Shown here: in pieces, positions 304 through 29,857 of the stretch | Position numbering within the stretch: position 1 is the first letter of the stretch | Layout: every line of letters begins with the position of its first letter | Virus record (IMG/VR): IMGVR_UViG_3300045837_000213 | Span: 1 to 64,000 of that record | From: a virus | Taxonomy: Duplodnaviria; Caudoviricetes | Strand: one strand, 5' to 3' | Length of the DNA stretch: 64,000 nucleotides | Program-made: the position numbers and the translations under genes | The notes under the pieces: model-generated | Seen by the model: the letters and a program-made list of their open reading frames with translations, nothing else | What the model was told of the DNA's origin: nothing | Databases searched by the model: none

Positions 304-1605
304 TCATTCGACCGGCTCCTCCTCGAGTAGATCGGAAGGGAAAGGCTCCGCGCCCTGGAGCACGCGGTAAAGACGCGCGCGGTCGATCTTCTTCCCCTCG
401 TACATGGTCATCAGTTGTTCCAACTGCTCGCCCGTCAGCTCCGACTTCTCGGCCTGCTCGGCGAGCGACTCGTCGCCGGCGTAGGCCTCGAGCACGTCGG
501 AGGCGCGGGCGCTCGTCTCCGGCGTCGCGTGGCTGTAATAGAGAACCATCGACTTGTCCGAGTGGCCGGTGACGGACTGGATGGTCGCCAGGTCGAGGCC
601 GGCCTGGAGCATGCGCGTCGTCGCCGTGTGGCGCGCGTCGTGGAAGGTTAACCCGTCGGCCACCTCACGTCCGTAAGGGATGCTGCAGTCCTCGCACGCC
701 CTCCTGAGGATCTCGTAGAACTTGGGCGACTCGTGGCCGGAGCGCGTGAAGACGAAGTCCGTCTCGCCCGACGCGATGAACTCGCGCAGGATGGCGGCCA
801 TCGTCTTCGTGACCCTGACGTAGCGGGTCGGGTTCGCGACGTACTGCGTCTTGGTGCCGAGCACCTTCAGCCTCATGCCGTCCCAATCTATGTGCTCCTT
901 CTTCAGCTTGTTCATCTCGCCGTGCCGCATCCCGGAAAGCAGGGCGAACTGGAGCTTGAGGCCGACCCTGCGGCGCGCCTCCGCCACGTTACGGCTCCTC
1001 TCGTCGAAGCGGCGCGGTGCGAGGAGGTACGCGTGCAGCGTCTTCTTCTCCTCGCCGGTGATCAGCCGCTCGCGCCTCCCCTTCGGGGCCTTGGGGCGCG
1101 GAATCTCGGGGTGGACCCACTGGTCGAGCTGCGGGTAAAGCCTCTTCACGCTGTTGAGGCAGGCGGCGACGCTGTTGAGTTCGCGGTCGACGCTCTGCGG
1201 CTTGAGGCCGTCGGCGAGCCGCTTCTTGACGAAGAGCTCGACGTGCGCGGTCTTCAACTCGGTCACCTTCAAAGACGGGTCGAGCACCGAGAGCAGGTCG
1301 CCGAGGATTCTGGTCGAGCGCGACTTCTCGCGCGGGTCGGTGATCGACTCCTTACGCCGCTCGACCAGGTCGGTGACGAGGGGGACGTCTGAGACCGAGA
1401 CGTAGCCGTAGGCGCGATCCTTCTCGTCCTTGCGGATCTTGCCGACGGCGGCGACGGCGTCCGACTCCGTCATGAAGCCGTGCTCGCGCTTGCGCCTGCC
1501 GTCGGCGAGGTAGATGTCATATCCCCACGACCAGTATTGATGTTTCTTGGCGTCGTACTTCCAGTGCTTCTTCTCCCGCTTCGAGTAGAACCGTTTGATC
1601 GCCAT
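304..1605 (-). CDS. int: Phage integrase (tyrosine recombinase)
   Basis: Catalytic motifs GMRHGE, FHDARH, TGH...YYSH; N-terminal arm-binding-like region; prophage-edge position. Confidence 0.95.
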   Translation of the reverse strand: MAIKRFYSKREKKHWKYDAKKHQYWSWGYDIYLADGRRKREHGFMTESDAVAAVGKIRKDEKDRAYGYVSVSDVPLVTDLVERRKESITDPREKSRSTRILGDLLSVLDPSLKVTELKTAHVELFVKKRLADGLKPQSVDRELNSVAACLNSVKRLYPQLDQWVHPEIPRPKAPKGRRERLITGEEKKTLHAYLLAPRRFDERSRNVAEARRRVGLKLQFALLSGMRHGEMNKLKKEHIDWDGMRLKVLGTKTQYVANPTRYVRVTKTMAAILREFIASGETDFVFTRSGHESPKFYEILRRACEDCSIPYGREVADGLTFHDARHTATTRMLQAGLDLATIQSVTGHSDKSMVLYYSHATPETSARASDVLEAYAGDESLAEQAEKSELTGEQLEQLMTMYEGKKIDRARLYRVLQGAEPFPSDLLEEEPVE

Positions 1606-1646: not shown

Positions 1647-2261
1647 TTACAGTTTGTCGGCGTCCGTCTTGCCGGAAGGCTTGTATTCGAGGTGAAGGGA
1701 AGACATCCCTACGGAGCTGTATCCCGTCAGCTTCAGCTCGATGACAGTCGAAGGGAACGACCACTGCCGCGAACGAGTCTTGACGCCCCTATCAGTAGAG
1801 TCGTTCCTGAAATTCGGCTGCCCGTACTTTTGCGTGAGCGCCTGGTCGAGGCCCTCGAAGTAGGCGTTGGCGAGCAGCGTTCTTATGTGCGAATCGACGG
1901 GCGAGAAATAGACGCTCCTCAGGCCGTTGGTCTTCACGTCCATGAAGAACTCGACCTCGAACCTGCCGCCCACGAGCTCGAAGTCCGGGATGTAGTAATC
2001 TGCGTAGGCGTACCGCTCGTCGCTTCCCTGCTTGAGGAGGTGGTTTTGCTCCGGTAGTTTTTCGAGGCGAAGGCCCGGCACTTCGGCGAGATCCTTCTCC
2101 GTCATGCCCCAGCGCGTGTTCTGCCAGCCGGGGAGGTCACGGGGCCCGGCCTCCTGCGCCGCCGCCGGTTGTAGAAGGAGCGCGGCGACGACGACAGCCG
2201 CGCCAGCCATGACGCGAAGGTGATGCGGCGCCGCCGCGGCGCGCGCCCTGAAGTCCCTCAT
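1647..2261 (-). CDS. Secreted/periplasmic hypothetical protein (lysogen-expressed position)
   Basis: Hydrophobic signal-like segment ending AAA-Q; TRWGMT motif; lies between integrase and regulator. Confidence 0.65.
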   Translation of the reverse strand: MRDFRARAAAAPHHLRVMAGAAVVVAALLLQPAAAQEAGPRDLPGWQNTRWGMTEKDLAEVPGLRLEKLPEQNHLLKQGSDERYAYADYYIPDFELVGGRFEVEFFMDVKTNGLRSVYFSPVDSHIRTLLANAYFEGLDQALTQKYGQPNFRNDSTDRGVKTRSRQWSFPSTVIELKLTGYSSVGMSSLHLEYKPSGKTDADKL

Positions 2262-2274
2262 AAAATTTCTCCGC

Positions 2275-4473
2275 TCAATCCTTCTTCCCCGCGACGACCT
2301 TGAAGCGCTTGCGCCGGCGCGAACTCCGGCGCGGGTGGACCGGGAGCCGAGCGCTCATCAGGTCGGGGTGTCGCGCGCGGATCTTCGCCGCCAGCGTCTC
2401 GATGTGCCGGAGTCCGAGGAGCGGCGCGGCGTGCGAGACGCGCCCGCCGGCGGCACGGAGCGCGTTCTCGATGTGATACCTCTCGAGGCGGAGCATCTCG
2501 GCCTGGAGGTCGCACGGGTGCCAGGCGGGCGAGGGCGATTGCGGCTTCACACGAACTTGCGCCGCGGCGCGCGCCACGTCCGCCGCGCGGACCTCGCGCC
2601 CGGGCCGAGCGAGCGCGAGGCGCTCGGCGAGCGCGCGCAGCTCCGGCACGTTGCCGAAGAGCGGCAGCCGCCTGACGGCCTCGACGGCCTCGGGCGTCAG
2701 CTCGGCCTCCGCGCCGAACTCGCGCGCGGCCTCCGCGACGAACAGGCGCAGGAGCGTCTCGACGTCCTCCGGGCGCTCGCGCAAAGGCGGCACTTCGAGC
2801 GAGACGCCGCTCAGGCGGTAATAGAGCGAGGCGCAGAAGTCGCCGTTGGCGACCGACTCCGACAGGTCGCGGTCGCTGGAGAGGATGACGCGGAAGGGCG
2901 GCGAGGAGACGCGCGTGAGGTCGACGAGGCCGAGCAGCCGCTTCTGCTCCTCGAGTCCGAGGAGCCCGGCCCCGTCGAGGTAGAGAGTCCCCGACGCGGC
3001 GTCGCGGGACTGGTGCCAATCCGTGGGGAGGTTTGAGCAGTCGAGCGCGACGAACGCGCCGGGGCGCCCGCCCCACTCGTGTATCAGCTCGGCGAGCGAG
3101 CGCCGCCCCGTGCCCGGCTCGCCGGTGATGAGGACGGGCGAGACGGAAGGCGCGACGAGGCGGGCGAGGCTCAGGAGTTCGAGGACGGCGGGCGACGCGT
3201 TGACGAGGACGGGTGTCGTCAGCCGGCGTGATCCCCCGTCGAGGCCGAAGAGGAGGCGCGCGGCGGCCCGGAGCCTCGAGAGAGTCGTGGCCGAAGGGCA
3301 GTCGCCGGCGCGCGCGTCCGCCTCCGTGTAGGCGACGAGCAGCTCGCGGCGCGGGACGTGCCCGTGCAACTCTTCGCAGACGGTCAGCGAGGCCGATGCG
3401 GCCCCTTCGTTGTCGCCGGCGAGTGACGAGATCACGCCCGCCCGCTTCAGCGTCTTCAGCGCCTCGTCATAACGACCGAGGCGTGCGAGGGCACGCCCGC
3501 GCGTGGTGAGCGCCTCGGCGAGTAGCGCGCGCTCGTCTCCGTCCTCGAGGGAGGTGGCGGCTTCACGAGCGACCCTCTCGGCCTCGCCGTAGCGGCCTTC
3601 ATCGATAAGAGCCCGCGCGCGCGTCTCGTCCACTTGCGCGATGCTGCCCTTGTCTTTGAGAGAAGAGAAAAGGGCGCGCGCGCGGTCCAGGTGTTTGTGC
3701 GCCTCCGATATCCTGCCGGCCATCGCGTGAAGGAATCCGATATTGTTCTCGACGCGCGCGCGGTAGCGCTCGTGGCCCGATATCTCGAAGAAGTACGAGG
3801 CCGCGGCGAATTCGATCAGGGCGCGGTCTGTGTATTCTGGCTTGCGTTCCGAAGCGCCGAGGTCCTTGAGCGCCGTCGCAAGTTGATTATGGTAGCGCCC
3901 CGAGAGGGACGGGTCGCCGACGCGGTCGAAGAGTTCTTTAGCCGAGGCGAGAATGTGAAGTGCCGCGTGGAGTCTCCCGGCGGAAATTTCGATGAGTCCG
4001 GACCGGAGGACGGCGAGCGCGCGCAGGTCGTCGCGCTCGCCGCACCCCGCTATGACCTCGGCGACGAGGATGCGGCCTTCGTCGAAAGCGCCCTCACGCC
4101 AGTAGCACGTCGCCAGCTCGAGCATGGATTCAAGTTCTTTGTCGCGCTCGCCCACCTCTCTGAAGAGGCGCGCCGCCTCGGAGAGAAGGTCTTTGGCGCG
4201 CCCCTGCGAGCCGGACAACTGACGCGCGCTCCCGATCCAGCCGGTGAGTGAGCCGGCGCGCATGAGTAGCTCCGCCTCCTCAAGAATGCTTAGTCCTTCG
4301 CGGCGCGGCTCGTGGCCCGCGCCGCGCCACAAGGGCGAGAGGAGGTCTCGCGCCCCCTCGTAATCGCCCACCTCCTCGAGTGTCTTGGCGCGGCGGCAGA
4401 GTTCGATCACGTCCGTGGCGCGGTCAGAAAAAACCTCTACCAGATGGGGGAAGCGCGCTCTTTTTGAATCCAT
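2275..4473 (-). CDS. TPR-repeat regulator with degenerate sigma54-activator-type AAA+ domain and C-terminal Fis-like HTH
   Basis: Helical TPR-like repeats; VLITGEPGTGRR, LYYRLS, PPLRERPED, GNVPEL and ALRAAGGRVSHAAPLLG motifs; no GAFTGA loop; Walker B reads LDG. Confidence 0.85.
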   Translation of the reverse strand: MDSKRARFPHLVEVFSDRATDVIELCRRAKTLEEVGDYEGARDLLSPLWRGAGHEPRREGLSILEEAELLMRAGSLTGWIGSARQLSGSQGRAKDLLSEAARLFREVGERDKELESMLELATCYWREGAFDEGRILVAEVIAGCGERDDLRALAVLRSGLIEISAGRLHAALHILASAKELFDRVGDPSLSGRYHNQLATALKDLGASERKPEYTDRALIEFAAASYFFEISGHERYRARVENNIGFLHAMAGRISEAHKHLDRARALFSSLKDKGSIAQVDETRARALIDEGRYGEAERVAREAATSLEDGDERALLAEALTTRGRALARLGRYDEALKTLKRAGVISSLAGDNEGAASASLTVCEELHGHVPRRELLVAYTEADARAGDCPSATTLSRLRAAARLLFGLDGGSRRLTTPVLVNASPAVLELLSLARLVAPSVSPVLITGEPGTGRRSLAELIHEWGGRPGAFVALDCSNLPTDWHQSRDAASGTLYLDGAGLLGLEEQKRLLGLVDLTRVSSPPFRVILSSDRDLSESVANGDFCASLYYRLSGVSLEVPPLRERPEDVETLLRLFVAEAAREFGAEAELTPEAVEAVRRLPLFGNVPELRALAERLALARPGREVRAADVARAAAQVRVKPQSPSPAWHPCDLQAEMLRLERYHIENALRAAGGRVSHAAPLLGLRHIETLAAKIRARHPDLMSARLPVHPRRSSRRRKRFKVVAGKKD

Positions 4474-4612
4474 GTGAGAAACCTCTTCGGTGTAAGACTT
4501 CGGTTCGGACTTACAAGAAAACTTGAATCGGTGCTATTCTTCATGCGCTCAGGACGTTAGGGCGGGCGCCAGGGCGCCCCGCCAGCACAACTTCATCCCT
4601 CCGAGGTCACGC

Positions 4613-4855
4613 ATGAAGAAGAATATCCGTTGCTCTCTCTTCGCCACGCTTTTCGTGCTGCTTCTTTCGATCGCCGCCGTCGCCGACGATGGCAATATGG
4701 GCACGCCCGCGGCACCGCCTCCGCCCTCTTCCGCGACGACTCAGAGCGCGGCGACCGACACGTCCGCGGCTACGACCTCCCAAACCGCCGCGGCGGTAGT
4801 CGAAGAGGTCGTGGTCGAGGTAGTCGAAGTTGCCCTCACGCTGAGGGCCGCTTAA
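4613..4855 (+). CDS. Small secreted peptide precursor (80 aa), divergent from the TPR regulator
   Basis: MKKNIRCSLFATLFVLLLSIAAVA signal peptide, then DDGNMGTP, a P/S/T/A linker and an acidic/hydrophobic tail; GAGG upstream of the ATG. Confidence 0.75.
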   Translation: MKKNIRCSLFATLFVLLLSIAAVADDGNMGTPAAPPPPSSATTQSAATDTSAATTSQTAAAVVEEVVVEVVEVALTLRAA

Positions 4856-4979
4856 GACGACGAAAAGGTGTCGCCTTCCAAGAGGGGCCGCCGCGCGACA
4901 GCGGCGACCTCGGTCAAAGTGTGTCCTGAGAGGCTTTGGGGCATATGCAAAAAAGATAGCAGCGATAGGAAAAATTTTT

Positions 4980-5447
4980 TTAAGCCCGCCGTTTTCTGCG
5001 GCCCTCAGCTTTTTTTGAATCTCGCGCCGCCTTAGCCGGGCGGGGAGCCGCCGCGGCCTTCGCGCCCCTGGCCGGGTACTGGCGGGCCAGCGTCTCCACG
5101 AAGAGGAGCACGTCGTCGAGCTTGTCGTCGGGGAGAGCGCGCAGGAAGGTTTGGGCCCGCTTCTCCTTCTCCCGGCGTCCCTGATCCCCGTCGCCGTTCT
5201 GCCCGTCCCCGCGCAGGTAAATTTGGAAGACGATCTCCGGCGGGTCGCCGAAGGCGGCGGCCAGACCGCGCAACGTCTCCTCCTGCACGTTCTTTATTTT
5301 GCGCTTGAGGATGTTTTGTACGGTGCCGTTCGAAAGGGTAAAGCCTTTCGCTTTCGCGCGCCGCGCGACCTCGTGCGTGCTCCAGCTCCTCTCGCCGCCC
5401 ATCGAGCGGCGGACGTAATCGGCGAGCGCTTCGCGTCCAGTACCCAC
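4980..5447 (-). CDS. CI-like XRE-family repressor
   Basis: HTH STHEVARRAK...LSNGTVQNILK...EETLRGLAAAF; divergent from Cro-like gene; GTG start at 5447 inferred. Confidence 0.8.
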   Translation of the reverse strand: MGTGREALADYVRRSMGGERSWSTHEVARRAKAKGFTLSNGTVQNILKRKIKNVQEETLRGLAAAFGDPPEIVFQIYLRGDGQNGDGDQGRREKEKRAQTFLRALPDDKLDDVLLFVETLARQYPARGAKAAAAPRPAKAARDSKKAEGRRKRRA

Positions 5448-5562
5448 GCCGTAATGAATAACATATTGTCTGCATAACGTGTTATTTAAGTTGCACAATA
5501 AATGTGTTGACATATGACGCCTGCATAATGTAATGTGCATCCCGCATAAGGAGGTGTGCTGA
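5448..5562. promoter_or_regulatory. Divergent promoter/operator region of the lysis-lysogeny switch
   Basis: AT-rich; TTGACA...CATAAT; repeated GCATAA/GCACAA half-sites; AAGGAGG RBS for the Cro-like gene. Confidence 0.75.
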
Positions 5563-5793
5563 ATGTCATTCGGCGAAGCGATCAAGCGGGCGAGGAAGCG
5601 GCAGCAGCTCTCGAAGGCCAAACTGGGCCGCAAGGCCGACCTCGCCACCGCGACGATCACCCGGCTCGAGAACAGCGAGCGCAGCGTGACGATAGACACC
5701 ATAGACAAGGCCGCCGGGGAACTCGGCCTCGTGGTCGTCGTCACACTCAAGCCCAAGCCCGAAGCCGCGGGGCAGGCGGCCACGGTCTCTTAA
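5563..5793 (+). CDS. Cro-like XRE HTH protein
   Basis: LSKAKLGRKADLATATITRLENSER HTH; strong RBS. Confidence 0.88.
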   Translation: MSFGEAIKRARKRQQLSKAKLGRKADLATATITRLENSERSVTIDTIDKAAGELGLVVVVTLKPKPEAAGQAATVS

Positions 5794-5802
5794 GGAAAAG
5801 TC

Positions 5803-6186
5803 ATGCGCAAACTCACAGGGACGAACACGGCCAGGGCCGTGGCGAGGAATCTTACGCGCAAATGTCACGTCCGCCTCGCGCGGGCCGAAGGCGCGAGGGC
5901 TTTCTTCGCCGTCGGCTGCGACCGCGGGCACGAGCACACGGTAGAGATCGAGCGGCGCGGGGACGGACTCTACGGCCAGTGCTTCTTCGAGGGGACGGGC
6001 GAGGCGTGCCCCTCGGAGCTGCGGGGCCGCGTCTGCTACCACACGACCGCCGCGCTCTCGCTCTACCTGGCCCGCGAGCGGCAGGCCGGCGCCTCCGGCT
6101 CCGTCAGGCAGCGGTGCAGATACCGGAGCGAGTTCCGGCTCGTCGCGGGGAAGCTCGCCGAGTACGTGGGGCCTTTTCGGATTTGA
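5803..6186 (+). CDS. SWIM-type zinc-finger protein
   Basis: C...CPS....RVCYH motif preceded by HEHTVEI strand. Confidence 0.6.
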   Translation: MRKLTGTNTARAVARNLTRKCHVRLARAEGARAFFAVGCDRGHEHTVEIERRGDGLYGQCFFEGTGEACPSELRGRVCYHTTAALSLYLARERQAGASGSVRQRCRYRSEFRLVAGKLAEYVGPFRI

Positions 6187-6311
6187 AGGTCGCGCCGTCG
6201 TCACGGCGCGAATGATGCGCGAGAAGGGCGCGCTAGTACAGTTCGGGGTCGCTTTTTCGGCGAACACCACTTCGAGGACTCTGGGCGGGAGAGAAAGGGC
6301 TGTGGACTTCG

Positions 6312-6785
6312 ATGGATACACCGGAGGCGAATCGCGCCGCCGTCGACGGAAACACTCTGGCCGTCGCGCGCGCCCTCAAGCGGCTGGGCATGAAACAGTG
6401 CTCGGAGCGCCTCGTCCAGTACCAGTTCAAGCCCGGCGCTGCGAGGCACGACTGGTACGGCCTCTTCTGGCGCTGGTGGAGGGCGCTGTGGATAGCGCAC
6501 CGGGCCGGCGCGGAATTCCTCTTCGAGGACTTCTGCGCGCGGGTCTCCGCCGTGCGCGACGCCGAGGGGCTGCGCGCCACTTCGCTGGGCGAGCAGCTCG
6601 ACCGCTGCGAGTACCAACACTACCGCTTCGCGGCGGCGGCGGCGCGCTCGGCCCCGCGCGACGAGATCATCCGCCTCGGCGTGGAGGAGATCGTCGAGAA
6701 GCGGAAGCTCGTCTGGATGCTGACAGCCGAGGCGGCGCGCGAGGCGTCTCCGGCCTCGCGCGCCGGCTCGCGGGCCGCGGCGTGA
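6312..6785 (+). CDS. Hypothetical early phage protein
   Basis: Plausible protein-like composition in operon context. Confidence 0.55.
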   Translation: MDTPEANRAAVDGNTLAVARALKRLGMKQCSERLVQYQFKPGAARHDWYGLFWRWWRALWIAHRAGAEFLFEDFCARVSAVRDAEGLRATSLGEQLDRCEYQHYRFAAAAARSAPRDEIIRLGVEEIVEKRKLVWMLTAEAAREASPASRAGSRAAA

Positions 6786-22886: not shown

Positions 22887-23144
22887 GTGAGCGAAGCCAA
22901 ACACATCGTCTTCATCGAGGACATGCCGAAAGCCCGCACCCGCACCTGGGAGGTCAGGGCCAAAGACGGAAACGTCCTTCTCGGCATGATCGGCTGGTTC
23001 GGTCGCCGGCGCGGCTACGCCTTCTTCCCTCTGCCAGAAAGGGTGTTCGAGCGGACGTGCCTGAGAGACATCGCCGACTTCATCGAGCGGCAGAACGTCG
23101 CGCACCGCGAGGCACTGAAAAGGGGCAGGGCGCTGACGACATGA
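22887..23144 (+). CDS. Hypothetical phage protein
   Basis: KTRTW-like and LGMIGWFG..R.YAFFP motifs; coupled on both sides. Confidence 0.55.
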   Translation: MSEAKHIVFIEDMPKARTRTWEVRAKDGNVLLGMIGWFGRRRGYAFFPLPERVFERTCLRDIADFIERQNVAHREALKRGRALTT

Positions 23145-24178
23145 CCGAGCGCGTCCAGGCACACCATCTCCAGCTCATCAAGCCGGCCCCCGGCCCGCTC
23201 GACCGGGGCCTCGTCGAGATCTCGCCCGCCGCGCTCTACGTCGTCTCGCTCGCGCCTTCGGCCCGGCGCGGCGCGCACACCTGCCTTCGCCGCGCCGCCC
23301 GCCTCATGGGCGCGCGCTCGACCGATGAGGTCCGCTGGGAGCAGATGCGCTTCGCCCACGTCGAGATGCTCAAGGAGCGGATGCGCGCGAAAGGTCTCTC
23401 GCCCCTCACCGTCAACGTCACGCTCTCGACCCTGCGCGGCGTGGCGCGCGAGGCCTGGCGCTTAAAGCTCATGCCGACGGAAGACTACCTGCGCCTGAAG
23501 GACGTGCGCGGCGTGCGCGGCGAGAGGTCGAGAGCGGGCCGCCGGCTCTCGGGCGACGAGCTGGAGGCGCTCATCTCGTCGTGCGAGCGCGACGCGAGGA
23601 AGATCGGCGCGCGGGACCTCTGCCTGGTGGCACTCCTCGCCGGCGCGGGACTGCGCCGCGCGGAGGCGGTCGCGCTCGACGTCGAGGACTACGACACACG
23701 CCGCCACGCCCTCCTCGTGAGGGGCAAGGGCAACAAAGAACGCACCGTCTACTTCGAGGACGGCGGTGCGCGCCGCGCGATCACGCGCTGGCTCCGGGTG
23801 CGCGGGGGCGGTGGGGGGCCGCTCCTGTGCCCCGTCGATAAGACCGGGGTAGTCCACTTCAGGCGGCTGGGCGAATCGGCCGTCTATAAGGTGCTCGTCC
23901 GGCGCGCGCGCGGGGCCGGCTTGCGCCGCTTCAGCCCGCACGACCTCCGGCGCACGTTCGCCTCCGACCTCCTCGACCTCGACGCCGACATCTCGGACGT
24001 GCAGAAGCTCCTCGGCCACGCGCGAGTGGAGACCACAGTCATCTACGACCTGCGGGGCGAGGACTCGAAGCGCGCGGCGCTACGCTTGCGGGCGCTGCCG
24101 TTCCGCGTGCGGCGCAAGCGCTACCCGAAGAAAGGGAAACGTCGCCGGCGGAAGTTCCGCCGCGGCGAATACAGGTGA
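23141..24178 (+). CDS. Second tyrosine recombinase (XerC/D-like)
   Basis: GLRRAE, GKGNKER, SPHDLRRTF, LLGH...TTVIYD. Confidence 0.92.
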   Translation: MTERVQAHHLQLIKPAPGPLDRGLVEISPAALYVVSLAPSARRGAHTCLRRAARLMGARSTDEVRWEQMRFAHVEMLKERMRAKGLSPLTVNVTLSTLRGVAREAWRLKLMPTEDYLRLKDVRGVRGERSRAGRRLSGDELEALISSCERDARKIGARDLCLVALLAGAGLRRAEAVALDVEDYDTRRHALLVRGKGNKERTVYFEDGGARRAITRWLRVRGGGGGPLLCPVDKTGVVHFRRLGESAVYKVLVRRARGAGLRRFSPHDLRRTFASDLLDLDADISDVQKLLGHARVETTVIYDLRGEDSKRAALRLRALPFRVRRKRYPKKGKRRRRKFRRGEYR

Positions 24179-28024: not shown

Positions 28025-29857
28025 ATGAAGAAACTGAACATCTCCCCCGACCTGTCACTTCCGCTCGACGCGGTCACGCAGAAGCTGGCCTTCCTCGCAC
28101 GCACCGGGGCGGGGAAGACTTACGCGGCTCAGAAACTCTGCGAGGAGATGCTCGCCGCCGGCGCTCAGGTCGTCGCGCTCGACCCCGTCGGCGTCTGGTA
28201 CGGACTCCGCCTCGCCGCCGACGGGCGCGGCACGGGCTTCCCCATCCCGGTCTTCGGAGGCGAGCACGGCGACGTGCCGCTCGAACCGGAGTCCGGGGCG
28301 CTCGTCGCCGACCTCATCGTCGACCGCCAGATCAGCGCCGTGCTCGACGTCTCGATGTTCGAGTCGAAGGCGCAGCACAAGCGGTTCGCCACCGACTTCG
28401 CCGAACGCCTGTTCTTCAGAAAGAAGACCTCGCGCTCGCCCGTCCACCTCTTCTTCGAGGAGGCGCAGGAGTTCGTCCCGCAGTTCAAGTCGCGCGGCGA
28501 GGAGAGGATGCTCGGCGCGTTCGAGCGGCTCATCAAACTCGGTCGCAATTACGGCATCGGCGCGTCGCTCATCTCGCAGCGCCCGCAGGCGGTCAACAAG
28601 GACGTGCTCAACCAGACCGAATGCCTCTTCGCCTTGCAGACGACGGGGCCGCAGGAGCGCAAGGCCGTCGCCGGATGGATTCACGAGAAAGGACTCAGCG
28701 AAGACATAGACGCGCTCCTGCCGAAGCTCAAGATCGGCGAGGCGCACGTCTGGAGTCCCCAGTGGCTGGGCGTATCGGAGACCGTGAAGGTCGGACGAAA
28801 AACCACGTTCGACGCGTCGGCCACTCCCACCTTCGGCTCGAAGGCCGTAAAGCCTCAGGAATTGTCGCCCGTCGACGTGGACGAAATTCGTCGCTCGATG
28901 GCCGAAGTAGTCCGGCGGGCCGAGGAGAACGACCCGGCGAAGCTCAGGAAGAGGATCGCGGAACTCGAGCGCGAGAAGGACAAGCTCGCGAAAGAGTTGC
29001 CGCGAGCCGTCTCCGAGGCGGCCACGCGCGTCGAGACGAAGACGGTCGAAGTGCCGGTGATCGCCGACAGTCAGATCGCGCGCATCGAGCGCTGCGTCGC
29101 GGACTTGGAGGAGCTGAAAGTCTATTCCGAGATGATGCGCGACGCGCTCAAAGAGGCGGACCGGATGCGCGAGTTCCTGCTCGAAGGCGTGCGGCGTCTG
29201 AAGGCGGCGAAGACTGAAGCCCCACTCGGGCAGACGCGCGCGCCGAAACCGGGACAGGTCGTTAGTACCAATTCTCCGCAAGCGCGCAGAACGGCAACAA
29301 TTAAATTGGACAAAAGTAGTGTCAAAAAGCCGGCCACCGCCGACGACGACTTCCCCGTCACGAACAGCCAGCAGCGCGTCCTGGATGCGATTGCCTTCTA
29401 CGAATCAATCGGCAACCCGGAGCCATCGAACCTCCAGGTCGGCGCGGTCGCTTTGATGGACGCGAGCGGCGGTCATTTTTCCAACGTCGTCGGCCCACTC
29501 TCCTCCGGCGGCCTTATCATCCGCGAAGGCGGAAGGATGCGGCTCACCGAAGCCGGTCGCGCGCGCGCGCACGTGCCCGACCGCGTCGCCACCCTCGGCG
29601 AGTATCATGACGTGCTGCGCGCGCGCGTCCTGAAGGCACGCTCTGCTTCGAGGCGCACGGTTGACATCCTCAACGTCGTCATCTCGCGCGGGGGCGAACC
29701 CGTCTCGAACGAGGAGATCGGCGAGGAGGTCGGAATTGACCACATGGGCGGCCACTTCTCGAACACGATAGGGCCGCTCTCGACGCTCGGCTTGATAAGG
29801 CGCTCGGGCGGCCTCGTCTATCCGACAGAGATTCTTTTCCCGGAGGGGCTGCGATGA
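28025..29857 (+). CDS. HerA/FtsK-family P-loop ATPase with coiled coil and C-terminal wHTH-like repeats
   Basis: ARTGAGKT Walker A, LDPVG, FEEAQ Walker B, GRNYGIG...SQRP. Confidence 0.88.
   Translation: MKKLNISPDLSLPLDAVTQKLAFLARTGAGKTYAAQKLCEEMLAAGAQVVALDPVGVWYGLRLAADGRGTGFPIPVFGGEHGDVPLEPESGALVADLIVDRQISAVLDVSMFESKAQHKRFATDFAERLFFRKKTSRSPVHLFFEEAQEFVPQFKSRGEERMLGAFERLIKLGRNYGIGASLISQRPQAVNKDVLNQTECLFALQTTGPQERKAVAGWIHEKGLSEDIDALLPKLKIGEAHVWSPQWLGVSETVKVGRKTTFDASATPTFGSKAVKPQELSPVDVDEIRRSMAEVVRRAEENDPAKLRKRIAELEREKDKLAKELPRAVSEAATRVETKTVEVPVIADSQIARIERCVADLEELKVYSEMMRDALKEADRMREFLLEGVRRLKAAKTEAPLGQTRAPKPGQVVSTNSPQARRTATIKLDKSSVKKPATADDDFPVTNSQQRVLDAIAFYESIGNPEPSNLQVGAVALMDASGGHFSNVVGPLSSGGLIIREGGRMRLTEAGRARAHVPDRVATLGEYHDVLRARVLKARSASRRTVDILNVVISRGGEPVSNEEIGEEVGIDHMGGHFSNTIGPLSTLGLIRRSGGLVYPTEILFPEGLR

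Follow-up and report, generated by a model that had tools for sequence, protein, structure and literature searches.

Here, we report on a 64,000-nucleotide stretch of viral DNA (hereafter, the window), which is the first 64 kb of the IMG/VR virus record IMGVR_UViG_3300045837_000213 (93,431 b, estimated to be 82% complete). Near its start, two head-to-head genes encode a 732-aa regulator (2275–4473, minus strand) and a small, putatively secreted peptide, the latter in an 80-aa open reading frame (ORF) at 4613–4855 on the plus strand. The two genes are best read as a phage-borne copy of a cassette of peptide signal and tetratricopeptide repeat (TPR) receptor that is widespread in Pyrinomonadaceae of the phylum Acidobacteriota, and we regard it as close to certain that the pair is a real, conserved member of this family. 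The window adds to it a clade of the cassette that is linked to a cI-like gene and in which the receptor appears to be ATPase-dead. An earlier reading of the sequence alone (hereafter, the sequence-only reading) had proposed the pair as a candidate arbitrium-like communication module, and the ORFs, layout, and motifs on which it was based are confirmed here. No description of such a TPR-receptor/peptide system in Acidobacteria was found in full-text literature searches.

Architecture of the regulator and the secreted peptide

The regulator was divided into three domains on the basis of Pfam/NCBIfam matches, alignments, and an AlphaFold2 (AF2) model. The TPR sensor (residues 1–410, 3244–4473, minus strand) consists of approximately 17 helices forming a superhelix and matches TPR_12, TPR_2, and TPR_1. 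It is followed by a degenerate sigma-54-type AAA+ domain (residues ~424–642, 2548–3204, minus strand), with matches to Sigma54_activ_2 (PF14532, 2e-18), Sigma54_activat (PF00158, 2.6e-16 in two pieces), and AAA_lid_14 (PF25601, 6e-12), and by a Fis-type helix-turn-helix (HTH) domain (residues ~656–708, 2350–2508, minus strand; HTH_8, PF02954, 4e-6), whose helices span residues 656–708 in the AF2 model. The TPR and HTH_8 matches bear out the earlier description of a TPR-rich protein with a Fis-like HTH. The N-terminus has neither a signal peptide nor a transmembrane segment, as is expected of a cytoplasmic TPR-superhelix receptor. The TPR domain matches the profile of the family described below at E 2.7e-152. 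No Pfam, NCBIfam, or PHROG match to RRNPP-type families was found, except for a weak TPR match to phrog_5823 (3e-4), and no homology to AimR was found in Pfam or PHROG.

The AAA+ domain had been described as degenerate from its own sequence (Walker A K to R, no GAFTGA, Walker B DG), and every one of these statements holds in the alignment with relatives. Walker A is GEPGTGR (K replaced by R), Walker B is LYLDG (DE replaced by DG), and ~21 aa are deleted, including the family loop ESxLFGHxKGSFTDA that is equivalent to GAFTGA (L1); this deletion is common to the window and its nearest relative, P0002. Furthermore, the first Arg of the arginine finger (R-finger) is changed to Cys and the sensor-II Arg to Pro. 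When compared with a functional sigma-54-dependent bacterial enhancer-binding protein (bEBP), the regulator has the Sigma54_activat core and the C-terminal HTH_8, and lacks the GAFTGA loop and the catalytic residues. Because the ATPase and sigma-54-contact motifs are lost, it is expected to act without sigma-54, and ATP hydrolysis is unlikely. The best interpretation is a DNA-binding receptor that works independently of sigma-54, is ATPase-dead, and retains the sensor and the HTH.

The full-length AF2 model has a mean predicted local distance difference test score (pLDDT) of 83.4. The AAA+ core, with five strands and the lid, still folds in the model (pLDDT ~80–87), and as modelled it is a trimmed scaffold rather than debris. 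The TPR domain is predicted at a pLDDT of 92.7. A Foldseek search with this domain gave LGN/Pins, which are peptide-binding TPR superhelices, as the best match (E 3e-9), and it also retrieved Rap-CSF (4gyo) and the Rap of phage phi3T with its pheromone (8rst), both at a TM-score (TMq) of ~0.58.

The 80-aa ORF begins at ATG 4613, 7 nt downstream of a ribosome-binding site (RBS) GAGG at 4603–4606; an alternative TTG start at 4523, which would give 110 aa, was judged unlikely. The protein belongs to no Pfam or NCBIfam family. Its first 24 residues form a Sec-type signal peptide, in which a hydrophobic core follows a basic N-terminus and A-V-A precedes DDGNMGTP. After this come PPPP, a linker rich in S/T/A, and a C-terminal helix of hydrophobic character; DDGNMGTPAAPPPP covers the predicted mature N-terminus. 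Cleavage would occur after A-V-A, judging from the −3/−1 rule and the family-wide A-x-A↓G site, and these features fit the earlier proposal that the signal peptide would expose DDGNMGTP. The predicted mature N-terminus (4685–4708, plus strand) contains the heptad G-N-M-G-T-P-A, which is supported by the sequence, by the motif and repeat statistics of the family, and by co-variation with the receptor.

Chromosomal cassettes and the cI-linked clade

The regulator has matches to over 1,500 database proteins, and its identity to over 100 family members is 43–47% over 95% of the length. Relatives were present at 448 loci in one-genome-per-species collections, and the best 80 of these 448 loci were all from Pyrinomonadaceae or other Acidobacteriota/Blastocatellia metagenome-assembled genomes (MAGs), in agreement with the earlier suggestion that the host is probably not a member of Bacillota. 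A profile search with the TPR domain yielded 796 clusters (50% identity) at E ≤ 1e-30. Four complete Pyrinomonadaceae chromosomes (G001–G004) carry 7–14 paralogs each (e.g., L123–L129), which fall into length classes of ~750–810 aa (TPR-AAA+-HTH), ~590–675 aa, and ~450–520 aa (TPR-HTH without AAA+).

A divergent small ORF lies 125–170 nt upstream of the receptor in ~65 of 74 loci, and three of the nine loci in which it was not found have too little upstream sequence. Seven short-form chromosomal loci also have the small ORF. These ORFs have a common plan: a signal peptide ending in A-x-A, a mature G-[DEN]-[MIV]-x-x-[PG]-x heptad, usually PPPP, an S/T-rich linker that often contains 1–3 further heptads (1–4 copies in total), and a conserved amphipathic C-terminus (consensus DPVTEAALSLLQSVLSLF). 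Examples of repeated heptads are GDIGVGR (four copies), GEIGTG and GEMGAG (three copies each), and GNMPTPG and GDILTPG (two copies each). An acidic dipeptide precedes the core Gly in a subset (EDGQMPTP, EDGIMGTG, and DDGWIGTG), as in the window, and such a DD/ED prefix is also found in L064, L087, L090, L096–L111, and L109. The window ORF follows this plan, with a spacer of 139 nt, GNMGTP after the DD prefix, PPPP, and an atypical form of the C-terminal helix. The sequence-only reading had asked whether homologous receptors have neighbouring peptide genes; they nearly always do, with the same G-x-M-x-x-P/G motif. The small proteins of the family have no Pfam or NCBIfam match, and their matches in the ESM Atlas are only "hypothetical protein" clusters from Acidobacteriota. 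A PEP-CTERM-type C-terminal sorting signal was considered and rejected, as none of 56 peptides had an NCBIfam or Pfam match. The cores of peptides paired with the ~450–500-aa TPR-HTH forms often contain Cys (GQIECPG, GQMDCPG, and GHIDCPI).

Most of the chromosomal full-length members have intact Walker motifs, approximately half carry the exact GSFTDA loop, and their genomes encode sigma-54. On sequence grounds, the receptor is a descendant of TPR-bearing sigma-54 activators (enhancer-binding proteins). A sigma-54-type site, TGGCCCG-N4-xTGCA, is present 76–94 nt past the stop codon of intact chromosomal receptors in at least 13 loci (L088 at 5278–5293, L045, L053, L063, L065, L070, L072, L073, L076, L079, L089, L099, and L118). 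In several loci, it is followed by a gene for a CheY-like single-domain receiver (L088, with L084 similar) or an AraC-type gene (L072 and L079); the ORF 3′ of the site in L088 lies ~229 nt past the receptor stop. The downstream site and gene are likely to be the sigma-54 output of the chromosomal cassettes. No sigma-54-type site above chance was found downstream of the window regulator. A sigma-54 promoter upstream of the peptide gene was also considered; none was found, and an extended −10-like TGnTATnAT is present there instead. The window shares with the chromosomal cassettes the TPR sensor, the peptide plan, the divergent layout, and the position of the operator by the receptor RBS. It differs from them in belonging to a cI-linked, ATPase-dead clade, in having no downstream sigma-54 promoter, in the acidic DD prefix before its one copy of the core, and in an operator sequence that has diverged.

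The nearest relative of the regulator, P0002 (L042; 47% identity), is encoded in an integrated element of a Pyrinomonadaceae MAG. The gene order at this locus is Cro-like, cI-like, a 65-aa divergent secreted ORF, the regulator, a secreted protein, integrase, and host secG-tpi-pgk-gap. The small ORF encodes a signal peptide and then GEMGFPVQPPPP, the same plan as in the window. Phylogenetic analysis placed the receptors of the window, L042, L043, L080, and L146 in one clade (SH-aLRT, the Shimodaira–Hasegawa-like approximate likelihood ratio test, 99.9); the clade comprises these five cI-linked receptors, as those of L145 and L148 are truncated and were left out of the tree. In the six readable receptors (the five clade members and L145), Walker B is broken (DG, EG, TA, DN, AA, and IA), and the GAFTGA loop is deleted or altered (GAFRGA, VAFGGA, GAFGHA, and GAFKGT). 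The order cI-like gene, peptide gene, and receptor gene is found at seven loci (the window, L001/L042, L043, L080, L145, L146, and L148), at least two of them in phages or integrated elements; in an eighth locus, L147, the sequence breaks off at the cI-like position. The window has all the features of the clade, namely a broken Walker B, a deleted loop, and a cI-like gene convergent with the peptide gene. As far as the sequences go, linkage to a cI-like gene is universal in this clade, in which the motifs for ATPase activity and sigma-54 contact have been lost.

In the window, the cI-like gene (4983–5513, minus strand, 177 aa) is convergent with the peptide gene and divergent from a gene for a Cro-like HTH_3 protein (5563–5793, plus strand; Pfam HTH_3 2e-8, PHROG transcriptional regulator families). 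Its homologs occupy the same position in L001, L043, L080, L145, L146, and L148. The window protein itself has no Pfam HTH match, and support for an HTH is weak, coming from a 44%-identical relative that matches HTH_26/HTH_3 at E 0.003–0.007. The cI-like proteins (window 4983–5513, L001:9007–9546, L043:190–636, and L080:2016–2450) share a C-terminal LPxDxxDD..F helix, with a weak DUF2281-like match, and a KKRA-type basic tail. None has an S24 peptidase domain match, which makes RecA-driven self-cleavage unlikely as the route of induction.

Scans of viral collections retrieved only two further phage contigs with the TPR sensor, L006/L143 and L142, and one cI-like relative without the pair. The IMG/VR contig L006 encodes a 458-aa TPR-HTH_8 regulator without AAA+ (3962–5338, plus strand) and a divergent peptide ORF (3637–3831, minus strand) with the core GDMGMPG. 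The IMG/VR contig L142 likewise encodes a TPR-HTH_8 regulator without AAA+ (4887–6419, plus strand) and a peptide ORF (~4644–4790, minus strand) with the core GIMQTGV. A ParA gene and a cI-like gene adjoin the pair in L006. Since the pairing is kept after the full loss of AAA+, both in chromosomes and in the two viral contigs, the peptide gene goes with the TPR sensor and the HTH rather than with sigma-54 activation. The sequences suggest a visible series from an intact activator through a dead AAA+ scaffold to an AAA+-less TPR-HTH protein, and the last two steps are found on phages.

The regulator and peptide genes share a putative divergent control region of 139 nt (4474–4612), which contains a palindrome, an extended −10-like element, and a leader block. 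The palindrome TGTAAG-N13-CTTACA (4491–4515) is the only exact copy in the window, where one other site has two mismatches, and the −10-like element is TG-n-TATTCT (4532–4540). The intergenic regions of the seven cI-linked loci can be aligned, and the six others carry CTGCAA-N5/6-TTGCRA at the position of the palindrome and TGnTATTAT. In chromosomal loci, TTGCAA-N6/7-TTGCAA lies by the receptor RBS, at the same position. The leader block of the peptide mRNA (window 4545–4600) is conserved in the seven cI-linked loci, with the consensus TCAACAACTTAG-GG and the sequence GCTCAGGACGTTAGGG in the window; this block may function as a regulatory RNA element or provide a second site for protein binding. 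A scan for the palindrome in two complete genomes placed 3 of 13 exact sites at paralogs, with the rest near background, and defined no regulon. We dropped the idea of the peptide-gene transcript as a general antisense to cI, as L001 has a clear terminator, a hairpin and a T-run, between the peptide gene and the cI-like gene, a region that is not conserved. In the window, no terminator was found there.

The peptide core as a candidate ligand and its possible role

Heptad identity over six positions was 0.66 within proteins and 0.33 between proteins, which was matched by none of 2000 permutations. The homogeneity of heptads within proteins indicates that the short unit, not the whole protein, is kept and diversified. 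Co-variation between the core and the receptor was measured as mutual information with average product correction (APC) between the six variable core positions and the TPR columns in 55 pairs, with the register of A and B helices set from the Pfam TPR_1/TPR_2 match at 319–345 of the regulator. In TPR superhelices, the A helices line the concave groove. Eighteen of the 20 top TPR columns for the heptad core are located on A helices, while A-helix columns have a baseline share of 45%. Shuffled core pairings placed 8.4 ± 2.2 of the top 20 on A helices (maximum 14 in 100 shuffles), and the corresponding numbers for the control residues were 11 of 20 (signal peptide) and 5 of 20 (C-terminal helix). 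The 18 columns cluster at residues 153–164, 196–204, 240–241, and 276–278, beside the nearly invariant N243/N244. The co-varying neighbour peptides that the sequence-only reading had called for were in this way recovered, the heptad motif co-varying with groove-lining A-helix columns. We consider it fairly probable that the peptide core is the ligand of the receptor. A partial Mantel test was set aside as evidence for the pairing of core and TPR domain, because the signal peptide behaves alike (r 0.31 for core versus TPR distance and 0.34 for signal peptide versus TPR distance).

The small secreted protein might instead be a regulated product only, such as a matrix, adhesive, antimicrobial, or exclusion peptide, with the TPR domain sensing something else; the pairing would then be an adjacency of regulator and target rather than of receptor and ligand. 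It is common for a regulator and its divergent target to share a control region, the peptide gene is preceded by a conserved palindrome and an extended −10 element, the conserved amphipathic C-terminal helix and Pro-rich stretch could suit a structural protein, and uptake of the peptide is putative. However, a mere product would not be expected to have heptads that are homogenised within proteins and diversified between paralogs, or a core whose co-variation is concentrated on the TPR A helices when the controls lack this pattern. The 7–14 distinct pairs per genome fit parallel signalling channels better, and the intact receptors have a separate sigma-54 target downstream. We find a product-only role unlikely.

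We propose a signalling pathway for the ligand–receptor reading of the pair. The 80-aa precursor would be exported by Sec and cut after A-V-A, and a short N-terminal peptide containing GNMGTP would be released; the conserved C-terminal helix is probably there for a processing or export step that these precursors have in common. The peptide would re-enter cells and bind to the groove of the TPR superhelix of the regulator, which would act through its Fis-type HTH independently of sigma-54, with the palindrome in the 139-nt divergent region as its target and the neighbouring cI-like/Cro-like switch as a possible further one. As a measure of how dense lysogens or infections are, the concentration of the peptide would act as an input to the phage immunity region. 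We see the whole chain, as stated, as evenly balanced between right and wrong. A link between the pair and the lysis–lysogeny switch is suggested by its position and by the clade-wide linkage to a cI-like gene; that the peptide informs the lysis–lysogeny decision is possible, with the chances lying somewhat against it. For temperate phages of Acidobacteriota, we put forward only tentatively an arbitrium-like peptide switch of independent origin, in which a captured peptide-sensing sigma-54 activator of the host lost its ATPase and its sigma-54 output and came to act on the cI-like/Cro-like immunity region, backed by a family of linear-peptide quorum-sensing channels, 7–14 per genome, in a diderm phylum.

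Several points weigh against this interpretation. The export, processing, re-uptake, and binding of the peptide, as well as its effect on lysis and lysogeny, are all inferred. In a diderm host, signalling would require two passages of the peptide through the outer membrane, and the cassette has no linked transporter. The co-variation was obtained from only 55 pairs and is uncorrected for shared descent, and the A and B helices were assigned from the TPR register, not from groove exposure. The Mantel result does not discriminate and may only reflect fast-evolving parts tracking each other. The modelled resemblance of the TPR fold to known receptors agrees with peptide binding, yet is generic for TPR folds. 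The window operator has diverged from the family palindrome, and the window peptide has a single core copy and an atypical C-terminal helix. Finally, a 28%-identical cI-like gene on a viral contig (L144:5001–5384) lies by an excisionase and an integrase without the TPR/peptide pair, which indicates that the module is accessory to the immunity switch and not required by it.

The phage copy could also be a hijacking device rather than a phage-to-phage channel, which eavesdrops on or blunts host peptide/sigma-54 circuits. The ATPase-dead receptor would then bind host peptides or operators, or mix into host receptor oligomers. It has lost all catalytic and sigma-54-contact motifs but retains the sensor, the HTH, and the AAA+ scaffold for oligomerisation, a combination typical of dominant-negative forms. 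The host-type operators are similar across paralogs, and the window core GNMGTP resembles the chromosomal GDMGTPG and GNMGFPA. However, the phage has retained a peptide gene and a diverged operator of its own, and no cognate host pair can be named. The clade is also old and long-branched, with 47% identity to the nearest relative, which is not what a recent copy of a host paralog would show. On this evidence, hijacking appears rather improbable.

RapI-PhrI acts on ImmR/ImmA in ICEBs1 by protein contact, and on this model the TPR protein could be an anti-repressor or co-repressor that contacts the cI-like protein, the peptide releasing or blocking the contact and DNA binding being secondary. 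The linkage of the clade to a cI-like gene in seven loci suits this idea. So do the cI-like proteins themselves, whose conserved LPxDxxDD..F helix and missing S24 match call for another induction route, and TPR domains commonly bind short helices or tails. It is nevertheless doubtful, and more so than hijacking, as the HTH_8 is intact and conserved and a palindrome is present in the regulator's own control region. Moreover, the TPR-HTH viral loci do not follow the clade order of cI-like, peptide, and receptor genes: L142 has no adjacent cI-like gene, and that of L006 is downstream of the regulator. The multiple inactivating changes in the AAA+ domain could finally suggest that the regulator derives from a captured host gene now in decay and that the pair is without function in the phage, but this is very improbable given the intact 732-codon frame, the confidently predicted fold including the trimmed AAA+ core, the same losses throughout a conserved clade with conserved synteny, and the peptide gene kept beside independent AAA+-less forms.

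Relation to known systems and genomic surroundings

Signalling by genetically encoded linear peptides via cytoplasmic TPR receptors is regarded as a distinguishing feature of Bacillota and their phages. The RRNPP(A) systems (Rap-Phr, including the phi3T Rap and RapI-PhrI of ICEBs1, NprR-NprX, PlcR-PapR, and Rgg-SHP) likewise combine a cytoplasmic TPR-superhelix receptor with the gene of a Sec-exported pro-peptide next to it. They also occur as many paralogous pairs per genome with diversified peptides and have copies on phages and integrated elements. The gene orientation of Rgg-SHP is divergent, the same as that of the window pair. There is no sequence homology between these systems and the window pair. 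In RRNPP receptors, the effector domain (an XRE-type HTH or the Rap three-helix bundle) is N-terminal to the TPR, whereas in the window the TPR is N-terminal and the HTH is C-terminal and of the Fis type; this reversal bears out the different domain order that the sequence-only reading had pointed out. The other RRNPP characteristic, an adjacent gene for an exported pro-peptide that co-evolves with the receptor, is present. The mature RRNPP peptide is taken back up by Opp and bound by the receptor, and the window peptide may share such a course of re-uptake and binding. Unlike RRNPP(A) receptors, the cassette has an AAA+ sigma-54 module between the TPR and the HTH, which is intact in chromosomal members. 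Its peptide core is located at the mature N-terminus, is often repeated, and is accompanied by a conserved C-terminal helix, and its hosts are diderm Acidobacteriota, whereas PMC10075063 and PMC9765709 describe RRNPP(A) systems in Firmicutes only.

Arbitrium (AimR-AimP-AimX of SPbeta/phi3T-type Bacillus phages) likewise comprises a phage TPR receptor and a secreted-peptide gene in the lysogeny region of temperate phages, and the logic proposed for the window, in which the peptide level would inform lysis and lysogeny, is the same. However, the regulator has no homology to AimR and a different receptor architecture, and AimP gives a C-terminal mature hexapeptide, while the window core is at the mature N-terminus. 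No aimX-like output element was identified in the peptide–cI region of the window or L001. Judged from the sequences, the window system is analogous, not homologous, to arbitrium and RRNPP.

The relationship to bEBPs of the NtrC/PspF class is one of descent, as the Sigma54_activat/AAA_lid_14/HTH_8 core is shared. Sigma-54-independent derivatives of bEBPs without GAFTGA exist (TyrR, HupR, and the NtrC of Rhodobacter), and TyrR-type proteins resemble the window regulator in having no sigma-54 contact loop. In contrast to bEBPs, the window regulator is phage-borne and has as its sensor a TPR superhelix of ~400 aa, with a peptide gene as partner; it differs from both bEBPs and TyrR-type proteins by changes in all of Walker A, Walker B, the R-finger, and sensor II.

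If the proposed signalling is true, such communication would have evolved independently a second time in Acidobacteriota, a dominant phylum of soil that is poorly represented in culture and has an outer membrane; the range over which it is expected would then widen. It would also add an unreported TPR-AAA+-HTH receptor architecture and show the capture and simplification of a host signalling module by phages. The short peptide, the ~400-aa TPR domain, and the 139-bp control region are reagents with which phage communication outside Bacillota can be tested. In addition, the chromosomal family, with its intact, ATPase-dead, and AAA+-less forms, offers a natural comparison for the decay of an AAA+ activator to a plain DNA-binding regulator.

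The pair had been placed between cI and the integrase. The placement holds, with the correction that one further gene separates the regulator from the tyrosine integrase (304–1605, minus strand; Pfam Phage_integrase 6e-23, phrog_1 1.5e-47), which is at the end of the record. This gene (1647–2261, minus strand) starts 13 nt past the regulator stop and encodes a 204-aa secreted protein with no family match in Pfam, NCBIfam, or PHROG and with hypothetical proteins as its only ESM Atlas matches. It was rejected as a third conserved component of the cassette, as it is not homologous to the proteins at the same position in L001 and L142. A secreted or lipoprotein-like gene is found directly 3′ of the TPR regulator in three phage or integrated-element loci (window 1647–2261, L001:12292–12852, and L142:6477–7349), and the mutual non-homology of these sequences suggests a variable cargo slot beside the integrase.

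Elsewhere, the window encodes phage-type proteins: integrases, an exonuclease, ParB-like and HNH proteins, a tail protein, and a portal-like DUF4055 protein. A second tyrosine integrase gene is located mid-record (window 23057–24178). A 610-aa protein (window 28025–29857) has HerA-like helicase domains in Pfam and a weaker match to a terminase PHROG. The GC content of the window dips at 16–20 kb and at 42–48 kb.

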